DNA of 26,159 nt from a virus (Duplodnaviria; Caudoviricetes). Position numbers and translations under genes: made by a program. The number at the start of each line of letters is the position of its first letter. Within the stretch, counting starts at the first letter, position 1. Where the stretch lies: positions 1 to 26,159 of the IMG/VR virus record IMGVR_UViG_3300006919_000376; one strand, written 5' to 3'. The notes below the pieces were generated by a model that saw only the letters and a program-made list of their open reading frames with translations, did no database searches and was not told the DNA's origin. This document shows, piece by piece, positions 3,753 to 20,121 of this stretch.

Positions 3753-5170
3753 GTCTGTGTGCCTACCGTTATAAAGTTATCTAACAAAAAGTGTATCGTT
3801 CTATTAGAACTTGGGTATTTATTTATTTTAAAGCGATTACTAGTTCTCACCTTTTGTGTGCTACCTGAAAGATATAGTTTTGTTCCAGCTTTTAAAGTTT
3901 GCGCTCTAGATACCACCATAGTGCCAGCCGTTGCAGATGGACTGCTTATAGATGCTACGGTAGTAGCCGTAGCGTTATCAACGCCTTCACCTAGTATAGT
4001 TAAATTATTTCCACCAGCAATCCCGTATGTACCTAATAAATCAACATTAGTACTACTTGATGACGTTACTCTAACTGTTTTAGTTAAAGCATCAGCCGTA
4101 GCGCTGGAAGATATGAAACTCATACTTAACCCAATAGCTTTTTTAATAGCTTTAAACCCTATAGCGTGAAAAGTCAAAGTTATACCGTCTGCGAAAGTTT
4201 GTGCAGAAGATAAAGTTAACGTTTTAGTATTAGTGTTTATGCTTTGTATTTTCGGCGAGCCAGAAAGGCTACCAGCGCTAACACCCTTTAGAATAGTCCC
4301 AACAGCTAAATCTGATACATCATCAAGCACTACGGTGGTAGAACCACTTATAGCTCCATCTACAGTCTGCGTTTTTTGAAACACCCAGTCGGTGTCTCTT
4401 GGTTGCCTTATTAACCTTAAACCAAAACCGTTTGTATCATTTTTTGAATTTGTAACAAAAGTATCAATATCAACATTGGTTGAATGCGAAAGCGCTGGAG
4501 AGGCAGTGTATACCGCGTCCTCACCTGTGGCAGCATAGCTGCTACCGTTGGCGGTAAGACCGGAAAATGTAACGGTAACATTCGCAACTTGAGATATATT
4601 TCTATGTATAACGTTTTTGTTTAACACAGTGTCAGTTGAAGGATCAGCCATAAGTATCATAGTGTACGTAAGGCCGTCTCCATTAGTCGGGAAATTTATA
4701 ACCCCGTTATACTCACCACCACTTACCTTGGCTTTTAAAGCGTTTTTAGAACTAAAACCAGCTGCAAAAGTTTTGGTTTTAAAATTGTAAAATAAGTTAT
4801 TAGATGTTACAACTTGTAAAATAAAACTAGCTCCCTCGTCACCTTTAATCGCGAAGCTTCGCGTAGAAGCTAGATAAGGTAGTGTGTTTAAGGGTATAAA
4901 TAGTGATTGTATTTTTTTTAATACTTCTTTTTGAGTAACGCTTGAATCAGCTCGCGAATGATTAATGCCAGCCATATAACCAACATCGCCCCTAAAAGTA
5001 TGCGTATGGTAACCTTGTAAACCCACGCTTTGACCGTAGTCTAGCGCTTGCTGTATAGTTTTAAACAAAGGTTCATTATCGATATACGTTAGTATATTTT
5101 GTTGCGATTGCCTAGTAGACCGTTGCGTTGATTGCGTAGAGCCACTTGTGTTTGTATTATGATAACTCAT
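3749..5170 (-). CDS. Beta-rich tail-associated structural protein (473 aa) with N-terminal His motif and two C-terminal repeat modules
   Basis: Thr/Ser/Gly/Val-rich. Two related modules (TVDGAISGSTTVVLDD...TLTLSSAQTFADGITLTF and TVRVTSSSSTNVDLLG...MVVSRAQTLKAGTKLYL) of a kind common in phage tail proteins. Located inside the tail gene block. Confidence 0.6.
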   Translation of the reverse strand: MSYHNTNTSGSTQSTQRSTRQSQQNILTYIDNEPLFKTIQQALDYGQSVGLQGYHTHTFRGDVGYMAGINHSRADSSVTQKEVLKKIQSLFIPLNTLPYLASTRSFAIKGDEGASFILQVVTSNNLFYNFKTKTFAAGFSSKNALKAKVSGGEYNGVINFPTNGDGLTYTMILMADPSTDTVLNKNVIHRNISQVANVTVTFSGLTANGSSYAATGEDAVYTASPALSHSTNVDIDTFVTNSKNDTNGFGLRLIRQPRDTDWVFQKTQTVDGAISGSTTVVLDDVSDLAVGTILKGVSAGSLSGSPKIQSINTNTKTLTLSSAQTFADGITLTFHAIGFKAIKKAIGLSMSFISSSATADALTKTVRVTSSSSTNVDLLGTYGIAGGNNLTILGEGVDNATATTVASISSPSATAGTMVVSRAQTLKAGTKLYLSGSTQKVRTSNRFKINKYPSSNRTIHFLLDNFITVGTQT

Positions 5171-5180
5171 GATTCTGCAC

Positions 5181-8100
5181 TTAATGCGTTGATGAAACTA
5201 TACCTAAACCTTGAAAATTGAAATTAGCTGTATCAATATTTTCAGTGGAAAGCCTTGATCCTTTTATATAATTAAACCATTTACCTTCTTTCTCTATAAA
5301 TTCACTTATAAAACCTTTTTGAAGATCTGTTTCAAAAGACTCCATCTCCCAGCCTAAGCGGTCGTTGGTAAAAGCGTTATAGGTAGATAGCGTCGTAGCT
5401 GTTGAATTTTCAGCTTTAGCGAAAGCTTTAACCATAGCTTGTGAACCCTCGTAATTTATAGTGTTAAAACTCTTTATAGATGAAGGGGTTTCATTCAATA
5501 TAGCCGTAACAGACGCTTCATATTGCTCTCCGTAAAACGAACCTCTAGTTTCGTTAGTGTAATGTTGCCACAGTTCACCGTTTTTAACAGTGAAGTATTG
5601 ATTTGATAAACTAACACCACTTTCTGGTACGAAAGATTTAAAACTTTCCCAACCTCTTACGTCTTCATTAAAACTAACTGTTGTAGAATTTTCTAATCTA
5701 AAAATCTTATTTAGAGTTATATTATCTAAAGTACCTCTCAACTCAAGAGCTTTATCATTTGAACCTGAAGTTATAACCACCGTATTTATTAGGTTATCTG
5801 GATCGTCGTTAGTAGAAGTACCTATAAAGAAGTCTTGCTCAAAAGATACGTTAGCTTCTATATCGGTTTGGAATACAAAACCCTTACCGTCTTCATTATA
5901 ATAATATCCAGCTATAAAACCGTTATCAAGAGCGCAGTCAAAAGAAAGTCTAACCTCTTGATTTGTGTGTATGTGACCTATATTTTGGTTGATATTACCC
6001 CATACAGCTCTGAGTCCCTCGAAACGTATACGGCCACCACCAGCGGGATCTTCTTCCCAGAACAAGAGATTTTGGAAAGATGTACTAAACACTATATTCC
6101 AAGAATCCACTGTACCTCCTGTAAAGTAGTTTGTTGTGTCACGTAAAGCAATATCTTTAATGGCGCCCGTAAAACCATTTTCTTCAGGTTCAAAAAACAC
6201 TTTTCTAGGATTTCCAAGAGGTGAGCTTTCATCTTCAGCGAACGTGGACGCGCTGTAAATAAAACCATTTATATCACCAGCCAATACATCTGCGGCGCTT
6301 ACTTCTTCACCATTAAGAAATACAGATATGGGATTTCCAGAATAAGAGAGCATGTTACCTTTGATTACATAATCTCCAGGTTGCGTTAAATTATTAAAAC
6401 CAAACCCATGCGTCAAGATAGATGTAACACCATCAACTTCAACGTCCTCCGTATTACCTGTAACATAACCTGCTAAAGACCCTTGAATATCAAGACTTGA
6501 AACTGGGATTATAGTAAATGAAAACTCATATGGCTGGGTTGGGTTTGGGTTATCCATTGGGAAGTTAGGTGAAATATTCTGGTATATAAACTTTTCGTGA
6601 CCAGGGCCTTGCGTTGTGTTCCACTCAATAGCTCCATTTTTAAAGTATACCTCTGGTTGATCAAATAAATTATAAGTGATTGGAGGTATTTGAACATCTG
6701 AACTTCCTAAGTAATTACTTGGTGGAGTAATCCAACTGTCTGCTTTTCCGCCAGTGGTAAGATTTGTTATATTTATTAACCGTATACTGTCTATAGCTTT
6801 AGCATAATCGTGCTTAGTTATCGCAATTTTAATTTCTTCGAGGGGTGGGAATCCAAATGGATATTGGAATATGCATCTAATAACGTTACTCACTACTGCG
6901 GTGGTATCGTATTCGGTTCTTGTTGTTGATAGTAATCTTAAATTACCATTAGGTTTTATTTCTCCAAAATACCCATAAGGATATGATGGATCACCACTAT
7001 CCTGATCTATAGGAGACTCGGGTATTAAACCAGTAGGTATACAATTTAATAAACTAACATCAGAATTAGCGTCTATATCGTCAACTACTGGTTGATACGA
7101 TATATCTAATAAGTACCAATTACCGTTTTCAAGAGGATTATCGGAAATATCTTGAGAGATGATAGCTGTACTATCTGCATCAACTTCTATCCGTGTCGCA
7201 GAGTCTGTTGCACCTCCCGTGTTGTCACCAGAGACCTCATGTATGCTAACAAACGGATCGGGTTGCTCTCCCGGTATAGGTGGTACTGGTTGATCGCTTA
7301 AATCGATGTGATCACCAAAATTAGTTATTGCGCCTCCGTCTTGTAGCGGTTCGTTTACAGCATTATACTCACCAGTTTCTTCATTAATCGTAGGGGAGTA
7401 ATATGTATGTTGAGCACCAAATTCACCTAACCCACCTGCTTCGTATTCTGTGTTCGATTGGCCTAGATTTTGTCTTCCATATATAATTTGATTAGTCCAA
7501 ACAAAATCGATTAGATTAGTGCCGTTATTTTCAACGTCACCGGTCCAACCTAAAATACCTCCACTACCGTCCCCATGTTTAACCTCTGCCCAAGCGGGAA
7601 TATCACGATATGGGATAGGATTCACTTCTTGTATAAAATCTTGACCCTCTATACCCGTGGGGTTTATAAGGCTATGCGGTTTTACTAGTTTAAACTCGTT
7701 TACATATATACTGTACTTTGTCGAAACGGCGCTAGGTTTAGTTACAAGACTCAATTTAACGACTAGGTTTTCTATTAAAACGCTATCCTGAGTAGTGCCA
7801 TCTGAAAACTTCCAAGCGGCAGAGTTCATCGTAGGTGAACCATGTACAGGGTTTTCATCGTTTGCTTCATAAACACCAGGCACGAAAGCCCAAATTGCTG
7901 GAAAAAGCACTTCGTTATTACTCTGCCACCCCATAACGTAATCACCTGCAAAAGCTATGTCTGGATTACCGTTGCTGTAACCAGTCCAATCCGTAAATAG
8001 CATGTGATGAGCTTCATAAGGGCTATCTGTTAAGTTATTAAGTATATAGTTAGCATTTCCAAACTGCGTGTCCCCTAAAGGCGCTATTATCTCTGGGTCA

Positions 8101-11100
8101 ACTGGCTCTTCACCATCAAATAGCTCTATTAACATGTTAAACCCATCAGCTAGCTGAAAAAACGGGTCAGTTATATTAAAAACGCCGGTTGTGAAATATA
8201 TAGCTATTTCCTCTCCGTTAAATATAGTTTTAGATGTCGCTTCGGGAAAACTTGCTATAATGTCGTCAGACACCTGGTGCGTTAAATCAGTAATAGGTGA
8301 GTCAACGTAGCTATCTAGTATATTTACAGAATACTTTAATCCACCATCGATAGCTGTTCCTACACCAGCCCCACTCAGAAAACTACTACCTTCTGGTGAA
8401 AAAACAATTCCACCCGGTTCGTCGTTGTCTTGATTTTCTAGTCTCCATATAGAACCTACAAATGCGGGTAACGTATTAGACGCTGGTGCGTCCGGAGGCC
8501 CATCGTAAGTGGTTTCAACTCCATCCGCGCTAGTAAAAAATCTACTAGCGTACATAAGAGGAGTTCCACTACCGTGATTCTCTATAAATATATTATTTCC
8601 CAAACTAAAAGCGCCTATGTCTGCAACCACTTCTTGAGCGTTAAGATTAAACCTAGCAGAATACGGAGCGTTAAAAGAATCATATGGTGTATCTATGATA
8701 GGCGCTTGCAGAAATTCACCAAACGCTTCACCCACAAAATCTTGACCCTCTACAGCCTCAACAAAATGCCCTTTGGGTATAGCTGGATGATGAGTAATAG
8801 CTGTCGATGAGTTTAACGACATGTTTTTTAACGGGATAAACGAATGGTTAACCGGTATATCCGGGATACCCCAGTGATTGTAGTGGCTCTGCCAAGTTTC
8901 ATTGATATTATGAGGAGATGGAATTAAATCCACGCCTGTTAAAGGGAAGCTGTCTTGAAAATGATTAACATCGTTTTGATATGTTACTAACTCTGTGCCT
9001 TGATCAACATTAGAGCTAGTTAGTAAATTCGAAGTATCTACGGGATAGTTGTCTAGCGTAAGATTATAATGCTTGCTATAGTCATCATAACTACCAAGCG
9101 CTATATTGTATTCACTTAAATTATCTCTAAACCAATCACGCATACCTGCGTCTGAGATAGGTGTTAATCCGTCCATAGAAAGTCTAAGGACTGAACCTCT
9201 TTGTTTATCTGTAAAATAAGCTCTATATGATTCAGAAGCAAAAGACTCAGGGTTCTTAGATATACCATAATCCCCTACAAAAGGCACAGCTTGTCCAAGG
9301 ACGTTTTCAGTGGCTACAAGTTGAGGGTTTCCATCCGCGTTAAAGACAGCGTCTTTATTTGCTAATATCTTTAAAACCCTATCTTCGCACATAGCAACTA
9401 AATCAGTGCTTCTTGTGAATAGCTTTTGAATACTTCCGTATGTAGGGTTTAAATCTTTGGTTATCTTTTCTGCTTGGATAAACTGATTAAGGTTGTTTAT
9501 ACCACTGTTAGAATTATATATACCAGAATAAATTAACCCATGTTTGCGGTGCTCTTCTGCATATGGCTCTTCTAATGTTGAAGACGCTCGAGCACCATTT
9601 GTGATCTGCATCTCGTTAAAAGTGTCTCTAATTCTATTAGATTCTATACCGTCTCCAAAAGAAAAACAATTGTACCAACTTAATCCCGTGTCAAGAGAAA
9701 GATCTAGATCTTTATTTATAAGCCAAATTCTTTTATCGAATACCCCAGGCTCAGAGAATTGCTTAAACCATTTTATTTTAGCTGTAGTATAACTACCGTT
9801 TTCTCGTATAAACTTAACAGCGACTGGGTCGCCTACTTCATCAGCTAAAGCTGCTGCTGTTGTGCTGTTTTCTTCTTCGGCACCATCGTGTGGAAAGTTA
9901 TAATTTAATTCAAATGCAGCAAACTCATCACCACTAAAAATTGTATTTGCAGCGGATGAGTTATACTGATTGCTATTAAAATCACCGGCATCAATGATCC
10001 AGTTTGTAATACGCCTATTGGCGTTGTAATCAAATATACCTGCTTCTCCAGGAATCCTACCTTCATCTAAAGTTGGGACCTCTAACCCTAAATCGTCTAC
10101 TAAAACCACTCTGCATCCTACAGGTGCAAAAATCTCTGCGTTTTCACTTGTTAATCTAACTGGTATATTGCTACTAGCTTCGTAATATATGTTTAAATCG
10201 GTTAGTTGTTGAGGCTCTGTCTCCCAAATAGCAGGGTAACTCTGTAAAGTGGTAAGAACGTTTTCAACATTTGTCTCTGGGTGTAAGAATTCAATGTTTG
10301 TAAAAGTATCATCATCAACCGAGAATGTCGGAGCGCCAGGATTGTAACCTTGTTCTGTAGGGTTTTTATCAAGCTCAATTATGTAACACGTTCTCCTATT
10401 ATGTCTTGCCCCAAAGTTTTCTAACGCTTCAATAAGATTTTGGGTTGCGGTAGTATCTTCACCTGTAATTGTTTGGTTTGCATCAACCGTTACGGAATTC
10501 GCCCACGCGCTAGCCGCTTCCTCTACGCTAAGGGGATAATCAACGGTGTCAGCGTTTTTATAATCATCTCCGTCGTATATCCACCTCATTCTCCATGACG
10601 TATGGTTGTATATGTGTTTAGTACGAACCTTTTGTATAGTATATACAATTTTACCAGGATCATCTTTGAATATAAACCTGTTACCTTCCTCGAGTTGACT
10701 TACAAAAAACTGAATATCAGTGTCTAATCCAGACGGGCTGATCTCAGGTCTCCACTGGTTTAAATGTAAATTCTGATAACTATCATCATACCCTTGCCCT
10801 TGGAGTTCGCTAGGGGTAAGCGCTCTACCTATTCCAGTTACTTCATCGTAATTCCCTTCAAACTCCATTATACGTATCCCATCAGCTTCCGAAGCTGCGA
10901 TAACTGGACTAATAGCGTTTTCACCTGTTGTTGAAAGACTAGGTGGAAAAGCAGTATCTTGCCCTGTTCCTTGAGACGCGGTAGGAAGTAAATTGAATAT
11001 ACCTCCACCCCATATACCTTGTAATTTGCTGGCTATACTATCTTTACCAACGAGACTAGTTACCCCTAAGTCGTTTATTATACTAGTGGCATTACCCAAA

Positions 11101-14100
11101 TCAATAAGATCTTCACCAGGACCTAAGAATGAAAGATGCATATAATGTTTACCTATATCACTATTTGAAGTACCGTAAGTATTATCTACATCAAGGTTTG
11201 AAGGGTATATAGTATTGACGTTCCACCGTCTCCACAATGATGTATGCTCAACCGTGGAAGTCATGATCCCCTCTAAACCGTTTATAATTCTATCTCCCGC
11301 ACCGTCACCCTGCGCTAAGTAAACCTCCGGAGTAACACCTCTTCCGCCTGCGTTTCCACTCACACGCCAAGTGTAGTAATCCATGTCACTAGTCTGAGAG
11401 TTCTCCCAGTCCCCTACATTAGTTCCACCACCTACTAAATCTAAGTTTTCAAACCCATCAACTACATTATCACCATTGTTGAAAAGATCGTCAGACATAC
11501 CGAATAAAGGCCCTTGCCATTCTTTACCGTGTATTGATAACGCTAAATTAAGCAAACTGTTATTGTCGTCATATGAGACACCTTTCCATGGGCCTATGTG
11601 CTTTTTCCACTCTAACTTACGATAATAAGTCTGAGCCCCAAACCATCCTTCGCCAGACTCTTTAGCGTAAGAACTCGCAGATGGATTAGACGCTATGAAA
11701 GGCAAGTTATCTATAAAGAAAGACTTTTTGTCAGACTCGTCAAGAACATCAAATAAATTACTCCAGTGTATAGGTTCACACCCTGGTGTTATGTCTGTTG
11801 GATATTGAGTACCATCTGGCTCCCCAGGATCAATAGTGTTAATTAGACCTGACGTTTCATCATTATCAGATGTATTATATGCACTATATAGCCAATACAT
11901 CTGTTGTGAAGTGACCGCGTAATTTTGACTTTCTAAAGAAGAGTCTTCGTTTATTAATAAGTTTACAGCTGTTTTTATTTTTACAAAAAATTTACCACTA
12001 AAATCTTCACCAGGTATTTCATCTCTCCTTTCAGTTTTAAACGTTAAATTTTCATGTAACAACCAGTCGTCACCATTAGGGTCTTTAGCTATGTTAGCGT
12101 CTATAGCGGATATTTTACTAGATAGTTTTATGTGATAAATACCGGCAGTATTAACTGCGCTTTGCGCTCTCGTAACACTAGAAATCCTATATCTTTTAGA
12201 ATGAGTACCGTGTTTTTCCCATGATATAAATACTTTGTTACTGCCTGATGCCAGGAAATCTTGAGAAAGATCAGATCCAAATACTCCTGATATTAACCAA
12301 CCTGTTGCGTTTATTTCTATATCTTGCGTGTCCTCTTTATCTATTCTAGCGTCAGGGTTTAAGAATATAGATTGATCTTCCACGCCCTCATTATCCAAAG
12401 TTCCAGAATCGTTATAGCCGTACCCGGCTAATTTATCGAAATTATTTACTACTCTACCTAAAGGAGAGAACGTATACTTAATAGCCTCTGGAGCTTCATT
12501 ACTTATATCTAAAACTTTGTATTTGTTATCAAATAAAGGCTGTGTAGATAAACTATTATTAAATATCTTTTTTACTGTTATAAAATCCTCTTTTACGATT
12601 TTATTTCTATCTGAAGAGGCGAATGATAACCACAAGTGATTGTTATCATCGTGAAAGTCCACGTGTCTAGGCGGGGTATAAGCTTTATCCATGATAAGAT
12701 TGTAGTACTCCCCAGAAGTTTCTTTTATATAAAACTTATAGTAATCAATCCAATCAGCGGGCTCTAAATCTATATATGCCTTGAACATGTTAGAGTTGCT
12801 AGCGTTTAACCCTAACTCAGGATTTCTCCAGTCAATTTTCACACCTTTTTTAGAAGTGAAAACAGGTGTTTCTCTACCATATTTATCACCGAATACAACT
12901 CCAACTTGATAATCTCTCTTTGACTTTAAAGATCTTAATCCTCCTTCACTGAAATCTTGAGTCTCTCTAAGTTCAAAACCAGACCACACGTTTGGTTTTA
13001 AGAAGTTGCCATCGATGTCTTTACCGAAGTTGTAACCTTGAGTGTAATTGCCATACACTATTCTATTACCAACAATTTCTTGAGCTAAAGCGGATCTAGG
13101 CACATTATCCCATGGTCTAAGCAGTTGGTTTTCAGGTAAAGCCGCGTGTATACTCTCTGTCGATATATTATACTTTCCCTTATGCGCTGACACTTCTCCA
13201 AACGTTACAAGCTCACTAGGCGTACCTGCTGGTAATATGTTTGTAGCTAGTTGACCAGAACCCGCTTTACTCCATTCTGAATCTGTATACTTTATATTAT
13301 CTATAGAATAAACTACATTAGAGTTTTCTTGCTTGTAAAGAAGATCTACTTGAACTACATCTTTAGGTATATCGGAGGGTACAAAATCATACAGATCTAT
13401 AGACTTTATAACGTTTGTCATAGTCTTGTTGTACGGTTCGTCTGTACTATAAGAGTTTAGCGAACTAATCCCATCATCATATTCGGAATTGAATACTACA
13501 TCTGTAAACGGACCCATAGCGGAATACTCCCCGTCTCTGTACTTATATCTAAAACAAAATCTTGGAAATATTTTTTCAAAAATAGCGGAATTCACATCTT
13601 CAATAGCGGAATTCATTTTATACGTAGGAGCTATACTAGGCTTCTTTTTTATAACAGTAACGTAATCTTCTGTTAAAAACCCTTTATCTTCACCATCTAT
13701 ATATAATCTAGAGTGTAAATTTATATTAGTAGGATTTTCTTTATGACGTGTCTCCTCGATATTTATCTTTTTTGGTTCAGAATCTCCGTCTGTCCAAAAT
13801 AGAAAATCATCAATAATATTTACACCTGTAACTTGCTTACCTGTAAATTTTAGAAATGCATTTTCACCACCTAAGTCTACAGCTATAAATGAACTAGCTG
13901 AGTAAGGTGCATCAGATTTATCATACTCTACAATAACATCTCTGTCAAGCATTTTAACAAACGTGTAGAGTTTATTCGTTAATTCATTAGAAATACTTCC
14001 AACGCAAGTTCCACCTGAACTTAAAGAGTCTACCCTAGAGTTACCCATGATATTTTGAACAGTACCAACGTCAGATCCCTCAGAAGTTGCAACGCTGATA

Positions 14101-14195
14101 TTTAAAGCGTCTCTATACTGTCCTTTTGGAATTAATCTTTCATCAAGGTCTTTATTCATTTTACCTTGATTGAAAGTATTTTTAATTTCAGGCAT
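5181..14195 (-). CDS. Giant tail stabilization/muzzle (nozzle)-like protein, P22 gp10/crAss muzzle type, with large insertions (3004 aa)
   Basis: Conserved-looking motif islands: N-terminal GKMNKDLDERL...YRDALNI; DDFLFWTDGDSEPKKINI; FPRFCFRYKYRDGEYSAMGPF; QEIVGNRIVYGNY; SLKSKRDYQVGVVFGDKYGRETPV; WYNCFSFGDGIESNRIRD; YGISKNPESF; YFTDKQRGSVLRLSMDGLTPIS; GWESFKSF; KEGKWFNYIKG. Follows the ring-protein genes. Family recognised from memory of crAss-like/flavophage tail proteins. Confidence 0.75.
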   Translation of the reverse strand: MPEIKNTFNQGKMNKDLDERLIPKGQYRDALNISVATSEGSDVGTVQNIMGNSRVDSLSSGGTCVGSISNELTNKLYTFVKMLDRDVIVEYDKSDAPYSASSFIAVDLGGENAFLKFTGKQVTGVNIIDDFLFWTDGDSEPKKINIEETRHKENPTNINLHSRLYIDGEDKGFLTEDYVTVIKKKPSIAPTYKMNSAIEDVNSAIFEKIFPRFCFRYKYRDGEYSAMGPFTDVVFNSEYDDGISSLNSYSTDEPYNKTMTNVIKSIDLYDFVPSDIPKDVVQVDLLYKQENSNVVYSIDNIKYTDSEWSKAGSGQLATNILPAGTPSELVTFGEVSAHKGKYNISTESIHAALPENQLLRPWDNVPRSALAQEIVGNRIVYGNYTQGYNFGKDIDGNFLKPNVWSGFELRETQDFSEGGLRSLKSKRDYQVGVVFGDKYGRETPVFTSKKGVKIDWRNPELGLNASNSNMFKAYIDLEPADWIDYYKFYIKETSGEYYNLIMDKAYTPPRHVDFHDDNNHLWLSFASSDRNKIVKEDFITVKKIFNNSLSTQPLFDNKYKVLDISNEAPEAIKYTFSPLGRVVNNFDKLAGYGYNDSGTLDNEGVEDQSIFLNPDARIDKEDTQDIEINATGWLISGVFGSDLSQDFLASGSNKVFISWEKHGTHSKRYRISSVTRAQSAVNTAGIYHIKLSSKISAIDANIAKDPNGDDWLLHENLTFKTERRDEIPGEDFSGKFFVKIKTAVNLLINEDSSLESQNYAVTSQQMYWLYSAYNTSDNDETSGLINTIDPGEPDGTQYPTDITPGCEPIHWSNLFDVLDESDKKSFFIDNLPFIASNPSASSYAKESGEGWFGAQTYYRKLEWKKHIGPWKGVSYDDNNSLLNLALSIHGKEWQGPLFGMSDDLFNNGDNVVDGFENLDLVGGGTNVGDWENSQTSDMDYYTWRVSGNAGGRGVTPEVYLAQGDGAGDRIINGLEGIMTSTVEHTSLWRRWNVNTIYPSNLDVDNTYGTSNSDIGKHYMHLSFLGPGEDLIDLGNATSIINDLGVTSLVGKDSIASKLQGIWGGGIFNLLPTASQGTGQDTAFPPSLSTTGENAISPVIAASEADGIRIMEFEGNYDEVTGIGRALTPSELQGQGYDDSYQNLHLNQWRPEISPSGLDTDIQFFVSQLEEGNRFIFKDDPGKIVYTIQKVRTKHIYNHTSWRMRWIYDGDDYKNADTVDYPLSVEEAASAWANSVTVDANQTITGEDTTATQNLIEALENFGARHNRRTCYIIELDKNPTEQGYNPGAPTFSVDDDTFTNIEFLHPETNVENVLTTLQSYPAIWETEPQQLTDLNIYYEASSNIPVRLTSENAEIFAPVGCRVVLVDDLGLEVPTLDEGRIPGEAGIFDYNANRRITNWIIDAGDFNSNQYNSSAANTIFSGDEFAAFELNYNFPHDGAEEENSTTAAALADEVGDPVAVKFIRENGSYTTAKIKWFKQFSEPGVFDKRIWLINKDLDLSLDTGLSWYNCFSFGDGIESNRIRDTFNEMQITNGARASSTLEEPYAEEHRKHGLIYSGIYNSNSGINNLNQFIQAEKITKDLNPTYGSIQKLFTRSTDLVAMCEDRVLKILANKDAVFNADGNPQLVATENVLGQAVPFVGDYGISKNPESFASESYRAYFTDKQRGSVLRLSMDGLTPISDAGMRDWFRDNLSEYNIALGSYDDYSKHYNLTLDNYPVDTSNLLTSSNVDQGTELVTYQNDVNHFQDSFPLTGVDLIPSPHNINETWQSHYNHWGIPDIPVNHSFIPLKNMSLNSSTAITHHPAIPKGHFVEAVEGQDFVGEAFGEFLQAPIIDTPYDSFNAPYSARFNLNAQEVVADIGAFSLGNNIFIENHGSGTPLMYASRFFTSADGVETTYDGPPDAPASNTLPAFVGSIWRLENQDNDEPGGIVFSPEGSSFLSGAGVGTAIDGGLKYSVNILDSYVDSPITDLTHQVSDDIIASFPEATSKTIFNGEEIAIYFTTGVFNITDPFFQLADGFNMLIELFDGEEPVDPEIIAPLGDTQFGNANYILNNLTDSPYEAHHMLFTDWTGYSNGNPDIAFAGDYVMGWQSNNEVLFPAIWAFVPGVYEANDENPVHGSPTMNSAAWKFSDGTTQDSVLIENLVVKLSLVTKPSAVSTKYSIYVNEFKLVKPHSLINPTGIEGQDFIQEVNPIPYRDIPAWAEVKHGDGSGGILGWTGDVENNGTNLIDFVWTNQIIYGRQNLGQSNTEYEAGGLGEFGAQHTYYSPTINEETGEYNAVNEPLQDGGAITNFGDHIDLSDQPVPPIPGEQPDPFVSIHEVSGDNTGGATDSATRIEVDADSTAIISQDISDNPLENGNWYLLDISYQPVVDDIDANSDVSLLNCIPTGLIPESPIDQDSGDPSYPYGYFGEIKPNGNLRLLSTTRTEYDTTAVVSNVIRCIFQYPFGFPPLEEIKIAITKHDYAKAIDSIRLINITNLTTGGKADSWITPPSNYLGSSDVQIPPITYNLFDQPEVYFKNGAIEWNTTQGPGHEKFIYQNISPNFPMDNPNPTQPYEFSFTIIPVSSLDIQGSLAGYVTGNTEDVEVDGVTSILTHGFGFNNLTQPGDYVIKGNMLSYSGNPISVFLNGEEVSAADVLAGDINGFIYSASTFAEDESSPLGNPRKVFFEPEENGFTGAIKDIALRDTTNYFTGGTVDSWNIVFSTSFQNLLFWEEDPAGGGRIRFEGLRAVWGNINQNIGHIHTNQEVRLSFDCALDNGFIAGYYYNEDGKGFVFQTDIEANVSFEQDFFIGTSTNDDPDNLINTVVITSGSNDKALELRGTLDNITLNKIFRLENSTTVSFNEDVRGWESFKSFVPESGVSLSNQYFTVKNGELWQHYTNETRGSFYGEQYEASVTAILNETPSSIKSFNTINYEGSQAMVKAFAKAENSTATTLSTYNAFTNDRLGWEMESFETDLQKGFISEFIEKEGKWFNYIKGSRLSTENIDTANFNFQGLGIVSSTH
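7635..7651. repeat. 17-nt direct repeat, left copy (aaaatcttgaccctcta)
   Basis: Identical to 8736-8752; both encode EGQDF in the same frame of the 3004-aa gene. Confidence 0.9.
8736..8752. repeat. 17-nt direct repeat, right copy (aaaatcttgaccctcta)
   Basis: Identical to 7635-7651; offset 1101 nt = 367 codons. Confidence 0.9.
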
Positions 14196-14198
14196 GAA

Positions 14199-15683
14199 TT
14201 AGTGTTTTATATGCTTAGATTGACCTCTAAGAGTTTGTGTTAACTCTTCTAATTTTATATTGGAAAGTCTTAGTTTTGCTTTTCTAACTGCTGCAAATTT
14301 ATCTTTCTTGTAGTAGGCTAATTGACCTCGACCTACGTTTGCTCTAGCGCTCATAACGTCGCATAGTATATGTTTATACATAGCTTCTTCAGCTAATTTA
14401 GGAACTTGCATCTCAGAATCACTACCAAGACTATCGCTTATATAATCTAATATCACAGTTTTTCCAGATATATTAGATGAAAAATGTATTTTACCTAATC
14501 TTTGATCTATGAAAAAAGATCCATTGATTTGCGCATGACTTGGCTCAAGACCGTAGCGCTCATTTGGATTTAACCAATGTTGCTCATATCTATAATCCTC
14601 AATAGAGTTTTCAGCTGGAGTTGTAGACTTAAAAGCATTCCAAGTCGAACTATTTATTTCATTACCTCGAGGAGATGTTAAACCTTCGTTAACCCTATAA
14701 CCTGTCACTGATATGTTGTCTATTGTGTTTGAAACTAAATGAATAGAAGCATCTACGTCGTAATTTGTATGAGGGACATAAGATGTCACTAAAGCATACA
14801 CGTGATCATATGCACTTACGTTTATACTGTATTTAGCTTCGTCGTCACTTGATGTACCGTTCCACTCTATATAACTACCACCATCTTCGTGGGGTATGTC
14901 GAATATTTCGTGACTCACGTTAGCTGATGGACCTTCTGGATTTGATATACCATCATACGGTAAAGTGTTCATATCTCCAGATTGAGTGCTTAAACCAAAC
15001 CTCAAGACTCCAGCAGGGGTAGCTCTAGTGCTCAAACCAGCAGCCGCGACAGCCGCACCATCCGCTTCTATATCTAAATAGTCTATGCCAGTAACATCGA
15101 TTTTCTGCCAAACAGCAAGAGCATGCCCAAAAGTTATCTTAGGTCTACCTCTCTGATGAGAAGCGTGGTTGAAGCTAAGTATATTTGACGTAGCCTCTAA
15201 CGTAGTGCGCATCTCACGATCTGTAGGTACAATCTCCCAGTTATTTAAACCATCATCAAAACCTGGATTTGTTACAAATTCGCTAAGACTCTTGAAAGAA
15301 TATTCTCCACTTGTCTCTTGTTTTACATGAAAAGGATTAGACGTGTGCTTAGTTGGGTATAAAGGTCTTTTAATACCAGCCGCGTCAACCCAAGCAATCT
15401 TAGTATAGTTAACGTAATCATGAGGTAGTATCATGGTTAAACTTGGAGGTAGATCTATCTGCTGTGATTTAAAAGATTTAAACGTATCAAAAGACAATTC
15501 AGCTAAAGCTCTTTGCGCATGAAACGCTATATCTGTTCTACTAGCTTTGGGTATAACTTTATCTTCTCCAACATACATTATTTGGAACTGAGCTATAATA
15601 TCGTCTAGTGAAACAAACTGATATCCGCCATAGTTTTCACCTTGATAATACTCTCTTTGAGTTTTGTCATCTAATAGTCCCAT
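14199..15683 (-). CDS. Tail ring/tubular (head-tail adaptor) protein with internal CBM-like insertion (494 aa)
   Basis: N-part YQFVSLDDII...AQRALAELSFD...LPHDYVNYTKI and C-part GKIHFSS...VILDYISD...VPKLAEEAMYKHI fit tail tubular/ring proteins (P22 gp4-like fold family). Lies immediately upstream of the muzzle-like gene. Confidence 0.65.
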   Translation of the reverse strand: MGLLDDKTQREYYQGENYGGYQFVSLDDIIAQFQIMYVGEDKVIPKASRTDIAFHAQRALAELSFDTFKSFKSQQIDLPPSLTMILPHDYVNYTKIAWVDAAGIKRPLYPTKHTSNPFHVKQETSGEYSFKSLSEFVTNPGFDDGLNNWEIVPTDREMRTTLEATSNILSFNHASHQRGRPKITFGHALAVWQKIDVTGIDYLDIEADGAAVAAAGLSTRATPAGVLRFGLSTQSGDMNTLPYDGISNPEGPSANVSHEIFDIPHEDGGSYIEWNGTSSDDEAKYSINVSAYDHVYALVTSYVPHTNYDVDASIHLVSNTIDNISVTGYRVNEGLTSPRGNEINSSTWNAFKSTTPAENSIEDYRYEQHWLNPNERYGLEPSHAQINGSFFIDQRLGKIHFSSNISGKTVILDYISDSLGSDSEMQVPKLAEEAMYKHILCDVMSARANVGRGQLAYYKKDKFAAVRKAKLRLSNIKLEELTQTLRGQSKHIKH

Positions 15684-18953: not shown

Positions 18954-20121
18954 ATTTTTTATTTTTCATTTTGAACTTAAAAGAGGCAGAATCATCACCT
19001 AACACTCGAACTTTCATGCCGCCGGTAGTCGTGTCTTTATGTGAACCTCTAGGGTCCATATCAATATTCTTCGACTTCCGAACACTGTCTTTCAGTGCAT
19101 CGGCTTTTCCCTGTTCATAGAAGTGTTGAGCAACTGCATCGGAATTCATAGCTGTATATAATGCCTTGTGGTATCCTTTAGCATCTGAAAGCGATTTATT
19201 TTCATCGACAAACTTTGCCATAAAATTGTTTATATCACTTTGTTTAGCTTTTACACCATCGACATCCTTAACATTGAATCGATATTTTTTTTCTCCGACG
19301 TTGTATTCAAAACCTTTGAATTTGTCGTTAAAAAGATTATTAGTCTTTTGTTCAAAAACATCACTACTACGTTTGACAGCTTGATTAGTCTGCTCTGACT
19401 CTTTATTGTATCGGTTGAAGAAATCAATTGCTTTCTGCTGCTCACCTGTGAGCTTGCTTCCAGCTTTAATCTCTTCGTAGTATTTAGACTTTTGCCCGTC
19501 TAAGTAGGTCTTGGCCTCGGCAACTTGCTCTTTGAGGGCCAATTTTTTACGTTTAATATCTCTTTCGTCATCTATATCTTCATCATATGAAAACCTATCT
19601 TCTATAAGAAAATCGATTTCATCTGAAGCTAGATGCGGTTTAGTTCGTTCGTAATACTCGCGTAACGCTTGTTGATCGTTTAAACCGCTAGTATCTCTGT
19701 TAAGTTTGACATAATCCTCTAAATCTCCACCTGTTTCATCCATGAAGTCTAATAACTTCTGAACGTTCTCAGGTATTTCTTTACCTAGCTCTTCTTGAGC
19801 TACGACAGCTTCTATTACGTCTTCTTCTGTGACAGCTTCCTCATCGGTAACTTCCTCAAGGGTTGGTACCTCTGTATTATCGACTTCTTCTTGTGTAACT
19901 TCTGTGACGATCTCTTCGGATTGAGTTTCGATCTCATCTGCTGTTTCTAGTTCTGATTCTGTTTCTAGCGGTTTACTTAAATCTACTTTAATGACATCTG
20001 GGTCATCTTTACTTTCAAATTTACTTAAATCTACTTCAGGTTTTTGCTCCTCAGCAACCTCTTCTTGAGGTGTTTCTTGGGTGACTTCTTCAATCACTTC
20101 TTTGTTTTCAACTTCTTCCAT
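18952..20121 (-). CDS. Probable capsid scaffolding protein (389 aa)
   Basis: Very acidic, low-complexity N-terminal 110 aa, helical/coiled-coil middle and basic C-terminus. Lies between portal and major capsid genes. Confidence 0.7.
   Translation of the reverse strand: MEEVENKEVIEEVTQETPQEEVAEEQKPEVDLSKFESKDDPDVIKVDLSKPLETESELETADEIETQSEEIVTEVTQEEVDNTEVPTLEEVTDEEAVTEEDVIEAVVAQEELGKEIPENVQKLLDFMDETGGDLEDYVKLNRDTSGLNDQQALREYYERTKPHLASDEIDFLIEDRFSYDEDIDDERDIKRKKLALKEQVAEAKTYLDGQKSKYYEEIKAGSKLTGEQQKAIDFFNRYNKESEQTNQAVKRSSDVFEQKTNNLFNDKFKGFEYNVGEKKYRFNVKDVDGVKAKQSDINNFMAKFVDENKSLSDAKGYHKALYTAMNSDAVAQHFYEQGKADALKDSVRKSKNIDMDPRGSHKDTTTGGMKVRVLGDDSASFKFKMKNKK

Follow-up and report, generated by a model that had tools for sequence, protein, structure and literature searches.

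A putative exchangeable tip domain nested in the muzzle protein of uncultured phages, and the direct repeat that brackets it

The 26,159-nucleotide (nt) stretch of viral DNA analysed in this work (the window; positions 1 to 26,159 of IMG/VR record IMGVR_UViG_3300006919_000376, Caudoviricetes) carries on its minus strand a muzzle (tail-tip or nozzle) gene (5181..14195; 3004 amino acids), in which two exact 17-nt direct repeats bracket an in-frame segment of 367 codons. In predicted models this segment is a real module, the innermost of several domains resembling carbohydrate-binding modules (CBMs), with a jelly-roll core and a two-armed stalk. Comparison with relatives indicates that the module was swapped in two clades and was lost in frame at the stalk in one lineage, leaving a short hairpin. 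We put at about 0.7 the probability that the tip is exchanged by phage-encoded homologous recombination via the conserved flanks of the stalk, the 17-nt repeat being a by-product. Shuffling of receptor domains is known as such; what would be new here is that it concerns an internal, nested tip of the muzzle.

The tip module and its stalk

The module lies within an outer insertion (residues ~1716-2833; 5697..9050, minus strand, as for all muzzle features below) which consists of a series of beta-sandwich domains, termed D1, D2 and D3 in this analysis, followed by the tip module. In a predicted model of the whole insertion, structure alignment (VIA-align) related the outermost domain D1 to CBM16/61/4-like folds (Z 10.3-10.8, root-mean-square deviation (rmsd) 3.0-3.9 in the top seven rows). 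The alignment comprises no more than 122-141 residues, spread over model residues 15..1127. The first strand of D1 (residues ~1719-1730, end approximate; 9006..9041) is separated by about 960 residues from the D1 body (residues ~2692-2832; 5700..6122), a CBM16/61/4-like jelly roll, and the arrangement is therefore nested. As this model was poor overall (mean predicted local distance difference test score, pLDDT, 46.3), it was used for D1 only. The domains thus appear to be inserted one inside another, D1 according to the model, D2 and D3 presumably so from conservation and from the empty allele described below.

A second model, covering residues 1787-2213 and based on 29 sequences, had a mean pLDDT of 54.9 and a predicted template modelling score (pTM) of 0.57. 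It starts with a conserved host strand that is part of D3 (residues 1797-1806; 8778..8807; block pLDDT 91; I1806 invariant in 29 sequences), which leads into the outgoing arm of the stalk (residues 1807-1828; 8712..8777). This arm contains words of the type xGQ[DEAP] and forms isolated beta bridges at every third residue. The tip module (residues 1830-2176; 7668..8708) follows with its jelly-roll core and long variable loops, and the chain comes back through the returning arm (residues 2173-2195; 7611..7679; P2195 invariant) to a second conserved host strand with the consensus IPAWAEVKH (residues 2199-2207; 7575..7601). Isolated bridges were predicted at model residues 26, 29, 32 and 35 in one arm and 399, 402, 405 and 408 in the other. 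Model residues 11-30 and 401-420, assigned to the stalk, reached a pLDDT of 84-93, in line with the suggestion of the initial annotation that the proline-rich flanks form a stalk. The stalk would be antiparallel and two-stranded, with the two EGQDF copies encoded by the repeats facing each other across a pseudo-two-fold axis.

The fold of the tip was matched over model residues 44-390, which correspond to residues 1830-2176. The self-contained unit proposed from the sequence was thus recovered between the repeat copies. Matches were to jelly-roll CBM, MAM and adhesin domains with Z 6-7 (best 6.8-7.0; rmsd 3.4-5.0 in the top rows), and the list was mostly of the jelly-roll class with all Z below 8; the best Foldseek match had an E value of 3e-3. 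Galactose-binding-like CBMs (families 4, 16, 22, 27 and 61) and the MAM and cleaved-adhesin domains resemble D1 in fold class (Z 10.3-10.8) and, less securely, the tip (Z 6-7). Identity to these domains is 5-15%, there is no Pfam match and the loops are very long. No Pfam family was found for the tip module of the window, and two weak, unrelated families were found among the 29 members. Atlas leads for the tip were all below 0.9, with CBM27 at 0.85. When profiles of the module and of D1-D3 were compared, the overlapping flank alone matched, so paralogy was not seen by sequence.

Arm lengths were compared as a test of antiparallel pairing. Over 21 lineages they did not covary (rho 0.14, P 0.55), the upstream arm end being impossible to delimit in long-armed relatives; in several short-armed relatives the lengths match (22/22, 21/21 and 34/33). 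The returning arms of L023, L026, L029, L041, L132 and L137 extend to up to 70-94 residues, compared with about 22 in the window.

Among 80 related muzzle loci compared (P0001-P0003 were left out of the insertion-homology count), 21 have a homologous insertion of about 1100 residues near the C-terminus, one gave a weak match and 58 have none. In L018-L021 the insertion is cleanly absent, with an uninserted junction of 57-58 residues between the anchors in L018, L020 and L021. These four loci are close relatives in the core segment (85% identity), so the whole appendage must also have been gained or lost. Among L039-L094, which make up most of the loci, many relatives that lack the insertion have in its stead C-terminal extensions of hundreds to more than 1000 residues behind the last conserved muzzle segment.

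Swapped and empty alleles among relatives

In both swaps, modules that are 30-37% identical lie within flanks that are 76-97% identical. The first sets L023 and L116 against L103 and L159. Between L023 and L103 the flanks are 86-97% and the modules 35-37% identical, and identity at four-fold degenerate sites drops from 0.72-0.88 in the flanks to 0.42-0.56 in the module, whereas module identity is 73-86% for L023 with L116 and for L103 with L159. In the module tree (FastTree) L023 groups with L116, and L103 with L159. The flank tree, a quick tree built without L034 and L140, conflicts with this and places L023 next to L159 (support 94). Identity falls about 60 residues past the upstream anchor and returns about 60 residues before the downstream anchor, and the steps therefore lie in the long arms. 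The second swap sets P0062 and P0069 against P0068 and P0070. Here flanks are 76-97% identical, and modules 30-34% between the groups and 83-88% within them; P0062 and P0068 in particular are 89-97% identical outside the module and 34% inside.

Further dips of identity inside the module, consistent with partial swaps or fast divergence of loops, were seen between L031 and L033 (module 45-64%, flanks 79-94%) and between L132 and L140. A hidden Markov model of the module did not recognise the module of P0009 (E 0.27) and gave a weak match to that of L131 (E 4.5e-4, compared with E 51 for the best of 30 shuffles).

An empty allele was detected by motif scan in L118, in which the three outer domains are present and a short hairpin takes the place of the module. 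The distance from anchor to anchor is 28 residues in this locus, compared with 323-628 in the other 30. Six full-length proteins of 2733 residues, encoded on different JGI and ENA contigs, lack the module at this position. Since it is present in their sisters (flank identity 68-75%) and in the outgroup P0071, the empty state is most simply explained as a loss. The chance that it is an assembly artefact and that the module was never lost seems negligible: although L118, L130 and L141 are probably one contig (all of length 24448), the six 2733-residue sequences are distinct, were obtained from both JGI and ENA, are empty at the same site and include one with its own substitutions, and the join is in frame and located at the stalk. 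The empty allele, which belongs to a distant lineage, contains no EGQDF. Within the clade that includes the loss, the word PEVLA belongs to the outgoing arm in P0068 and to the returning one in P0062, P0063, P0065 and P0069.

The alternative alleles anticipated by the initial annotation thus exist in relatives, both empty and swapped, but were not met in the lineage of the window. The 17-mer was found by an IMG/VR scan in 12 stretches, four from two contigs with the full allele and eight unrelated, none of which was a single-copy muzzle. A region search in 5.8 billion clusters returned two matches, both full, and a HMMER search of representatives two matches with no empty allele; scans with two-sequence alignment returned the same two contigs among viral sequences and none among GTDB genomes. 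No junction at the repeat site was present among 15 joints listed of 108 in assembled contigs from 4 of 23 runs, a material that drops rare variants and could hide rare excision. In run X5 one contig spans positions 5000-11530, and in run X7 contigs bridge both repeat copies. Mobility of the module is, as judged by these comparisons, a property of the family seen in relatives only.

In run X20 (record 11), a contig of 1039 nt fits positions 7516-7926 with 31 differences, and its other 628 nt do not fit. This single contig, at a depth of 5.4, hints at a mosaic breakpoint left of 7516, some 120 nt beyond the repeat.

Origin of the repeat and route of exchange

The two copies of the 17-mer (7635-7651 in the returning arm, 8736-8752 in the outgoing arm) are offset by 1101 nt and are in frame. 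Both encode EGQDF, at residues 2183-2187 and 1816-1820, respectively, with identical codons; all of this agrees with the initial annotation. If mismatches are allowed, the in-frame match covers 24 nt (7633-7656 and 8734-8757), of which 21 are identical. A null model of shuffled codons, which that annotation had proposed, gave an exact repeat of at least 17 nt in 1.15% of 2000 shuffles of the muzzle gene and in 7.8% of 600 shuffles of the window. Taken by itself the repeat is suggestive but not compelling, as it goes only modestly beyond chance (P ~0.01 for the gene, 0.08 for the window). When the protein was held fixed, the five EGQDF codons were identical in 4.5% of 2000 synonymous shuffles because all five are the commonest codons of the gene; the 21/24 arm match was reached in 2 of 200 synonymous redraws. 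Repeats of five residues number six in the muzzle protein, against 4.1 +/- 2.3 expected. That other protein repeats of this gene are diverged at the DNA level was overstated, since NLFD and PGED are identical at 12 of 12 nt (among 40 repeats listed of 58). A useful chance control for the 17-mer is offered by an exact 16-nt repeat in the same gene (12500-12515 and 13540-13555), which is out of frame.

The arms were then compared across 36 selected loci, of which L022, L036, L138, L149 and L154 were dropped because one anchor was missing. Of the swap and loss loci, the DNA repeat test covers those of the first swap and L131; P0068-P0071, from the second swap and the loss clade, entered the comparison as proteins. 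Strong arm repeats (21-22 of 24 nt) occur in only 3 of 30 loci belonging to two lineages, namely the window (as its copy L015), L144 and L025. The remaining 27 score at most 18/24, with background values of 14 for the loci of the first swap and 15 for L131. Over the 30 loci, in the best alignment, 60 of 139 identical residues share their codon between the arms, against 65.1 expected. As proteins the arms are mildly alike (4.5 versus 3.6 of 9 residues; 21 lineages) because both use xGQ[DEAP] words. This motif, which was chosen post hoc, is found 13 times in 1260 arm residues and 7 times in 20103 residues elsewhere, an enrichment of about 30-fold. The distant loci L031 and L032 have an EGQD in their outgoing arm as well. 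EGQDF stands at the same place in the returning arm of L144 and of the nearest outgroup, L155. In L155 it occurs downstream only, the upstream counterpart being EGQEG with different codons, and the tip module is common to lineages that are only 15-25% identical. The module must therefore be older than the repeat, and its gain with a target duplication is unsupported.

It had been proposed that the cassette was gained with such a duplication, or that the repeats are dedicated microhomology sites at which it plugs in and out without a recombinase. In favour of this, the repeat sites coincide with domain ends, the repeat has a P of about 0.01 within the gene, a comparable short hairpin marks the empty allele of a distant lineage, and PEVLA is found in either arm within the loss clade. 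We nevertheless regard this explanation as very improbable. The module is present in 30 of 31 loci and strong repeats in three, the swap and loss loci that were tested lack such repeats, and the breakpoints of the first swap lie away from them. Exchange between two genomes needs homologous flanks and not direct repeats, which also counts against the repeats as the sites of exchange. The empty single-copy site expected from a target-site duplication was absent from the IMG/VR stretches, from the protein search and from the seven of seven full-length cluster members.

Nor is a recombinase-free route in keeping with the gene content. Record G001, which is 99.8% identical to the window over the 13.8 kb compared, encodes an ERF annealase (E 3.3e-31) next to an ExoVIII-like nuclease gene, and also a resolvase-like gene. 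The regions L162:14858-19065 and L163:2038-4150 (minus strand) comprise genes for a class II ribonucleotide reductase, a resolvase-like nuclease, MazG-like, ThyA, ExoVIII-like and ERF proteins and a sigma-70-like factor. ERF was also found in G004 of the first swap clade; it was present in one of five partial relatives, which are fragments, so that absence is uninformative. No match to Sak4-type AAA_24 was obtained in four records. In a study on relaxed recombination by Rad52-like proteins (Red-beta, RecT, Erf), sequences with 78% identity were efficiently recombined by an Erf together with an exonuclease, and minimal efficient pairing was 23-27 bp for Red-beta and 31-34 bp for RecA (PMC3945230). 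The pair in G001 resembles that system, with the difference that its ERF is a prediction; the 17 nt of the repeat are shorter than both quoted minima (PMC3945230).

For the origin of the repeat alone, out-of-register recombination or a template switch may have copied the returning arm into the outgoing arm, once before the window and L144 diverged and, as a separate event, in L025. Where the outgoing arm of L144 departs from that of L155, it matches its own returning arm (8 of 9 residues, 24 of 27 nt); L025 has a different repeat of 22/24 nt (P 0.015), and in the window six of six identical residues share their codon, compared with 3.3 expected. Since no excess is seen across lineages, L144 taken alone gives a P of 0.225, EGQD words are also found in L031 and L032, and all five codons are the commonest of the gene, we consider such copying a serious contender that falls a little short of even odds.

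The evidence is best accommodated if the 367 codons encode the end of a nested appendage on the muzzle, an innermost CBM-like domain on an antiparallel, two-stranded stalk with a period of three residues, which co-infecting relatives would exchange by homologous recombination within the conserved stalk and flanks. Exchange itself is read from the sequences; the enzyme would most likely be the phage ERF annealase together with the exonuclease. In one lineage the tip was also deleted in frame, with a short hairpin remaining. The repeat would be a by-product: both arms take their stalk words from one limited stock, and its five codons are the commonest ones in the gene. In the lineage of the window, a single copying event from the returning into the outgoing arm may have improved the match. 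As a caution, short in-frame repeats at domain ends can reflect stalk symmetry and codon bias rather than mobility.

Several points weigh against this account. In the lineage of the window no swap or loss was found: the seven of seven full-length cluster members have 3004 residues and an invariant module, and synonymous divergence from L144 is alike in module and flanks (codon identity 0.61-0.64 and 0.54-0.72, respectively). The arm match of the window (21/24) has a P of 0.01 and that of L025 (22/24) a P of 0.015, and 3 of 30 arm tests fall below 0.05, where about 1.5 are expected. The repeat of L144 (P 0.225 alone) was kept across about 40% synonymous change, which leaves room for a process at the DNA level, and the strong, different arm repeats of two lineages leave room for occasional copying between arms. 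As to structure, arm pairing was read from the DSSP string and not from coordinates, and a Z of about 7 for the tip is in the range rated common to middling by the tool, with models of modest quality (pLDDT 54.9 and 46.3).

Receptor role, related systems and genomic setting

Fold, position and swap pattern make it somewhat more probable than the opposite that the candidate tip binds a surface glycan of the host and tunes host range. Alternatively, the tip could be an auxiliary surface domain (for adhesion to particles or mucus, as a decoy or as a stabiliser) whose variation reflects habitat or drift. One lineage persists without the tip and close relatives lack the whole insertion; there is no Pfam family for the module of the window, and its Atlas matches are all below 0.9. 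An auxiliary role appears possible but rather unlikely, as sharp allele swaps in otherwise close genomes of two clades are the pattern of receptor-binding domains in the available parts of PMC10408124 and PMC10684548, and the tip sits on a tail tip protein. A bolder view, which we think improbable, is that the muzzle of these abundant, uncultured aquatic phages also serves as a host-recognition organ with six nested carbohydrate-binding arms, in which the pseudo-symmetric stalk repeatedly regenerates in-frame repeats by arm copying and the tip is a reversible cassette that is ejected, regained and swapped to change host.

In tailspikes and fibres, exchange of a variable domain between conserved flanking motifs is described, with sharp drops of identity between close phages (PMC10408124, PMC10684548). 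The variable domain and the conserved flanks are alike here. The tailspike or fibre domain is, however, usually C-terminal, whereas the present one is internal, occupies the core of a nested insertion within a gate protein, requires two crossovers within the gene and can be lost in frame. In the muzzle gp44 of crassvirus phiCrAss001 domains are inserted into loops and length varies by insertions, and crassvirus muzzle length variation was placed in the crass and IG2 domains (PMC10172136). The muzzle of the window resembles gp44 in its matches to Pfam families crAss_MUZ and crAss_MUZ_C; unlike gp44, it has a nested CBM-like insertion of about 1100 residues just before the C-terminal segment, which is probably the propeller half. 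The nozzle-rope protein gp39 of the Pseudomonas podophage A1002 forms an out-and-back rope of about 300 A which docks fibre dimers and has a beta-sandwich end, with an immunoglobulin (Ig)-like domain (residues 108-242) between rope segments (PMC13730344). Compared by description, both are out-and-back arms derived from a nozzle with a beta-sandwich end, but that end is Ig-like in gp39 and a jelly roll here, with about 22 residues per arm. A literature search retrieved no title or abstract start describing a nested, exchangeable muzzle appendage; it was light on subscription papers and supplements, and variation in muzzle length might be treated in the supplements of PMC10172136.

The tip is thus a candidate for setting host range in a group of uncultured, widespread phages that probably infect Flavobacteriia. 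It sits in an unexpected part, the gate protein of the muzzle, and its full, swapped and empty natural alleles are ready-made comparisons. Shuffling of receptor domains, known from the ends of fibres, would then also affect a domain that lies internal and nested.

The muzzle gene was identified by matches to crAss_MUZ (residues 5-258; E 7.6e-13, 47.9 bits, cut-off 27; profile positions 4-231 of 1224 only), to crAss_MUZ_C (residues 2883-2978; E 3.3e-9, 37.5 bits, cut-off 27) and to the virion structural protein phrog_14478 (E 3.5e-126). A phmmer search against PDB gave no match at E 0.01. Upstream on the same strand are genes for terminase, portal and three virion structural proteins, the last three presumably being capsid and ring proteins. 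The Pfam matches and the position in the structural block assign the muzzle to the crassvirus type; membership in Crassvirales is not established, and phi13:2 is treated as a crassvirus outgroup in the available text of PMC10172136. The terminase had a 62.7% match to an unclassified record and, among the matches listed, was 30-45% identical to those of cultured Flavobacterium (elemo), Cellulophaga and Tenacibaculum phages. A tblastn search with it gave 87 records (Flavobacterium 68, Cellulophaga 15, Tenacibaculum 2, Maribacter 1, unclassified 1). The host probably belongs to the Flavobacteriia because of these matches and of a protein with a Por-secretion C-terminal domain in G001. The latter (717 residues; L162:8850-11000, plus strand) has a C-terminal sorting domain of the Por (type IX) secretion system.

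In the structural gene directly upstream of the muzzle (14199-15683; 494 residues) a profile of 273 positions was matched in two stretches, which suggests an internal insertion of about 200 residues there too. A second exact in-frame 17-nt repeat (19972-19988 and 20020-20036; 48 nt apart), encoding a repeated VDLSK, lies in an acidic gene between the portal and a putative capsid gene and is probably a local duplication. Finally, L162:11482-12786 (plus strand) contains three tandem threonine-rich genes of 137-141 codons with N-termini alike, possibly paralogous virion proteins.

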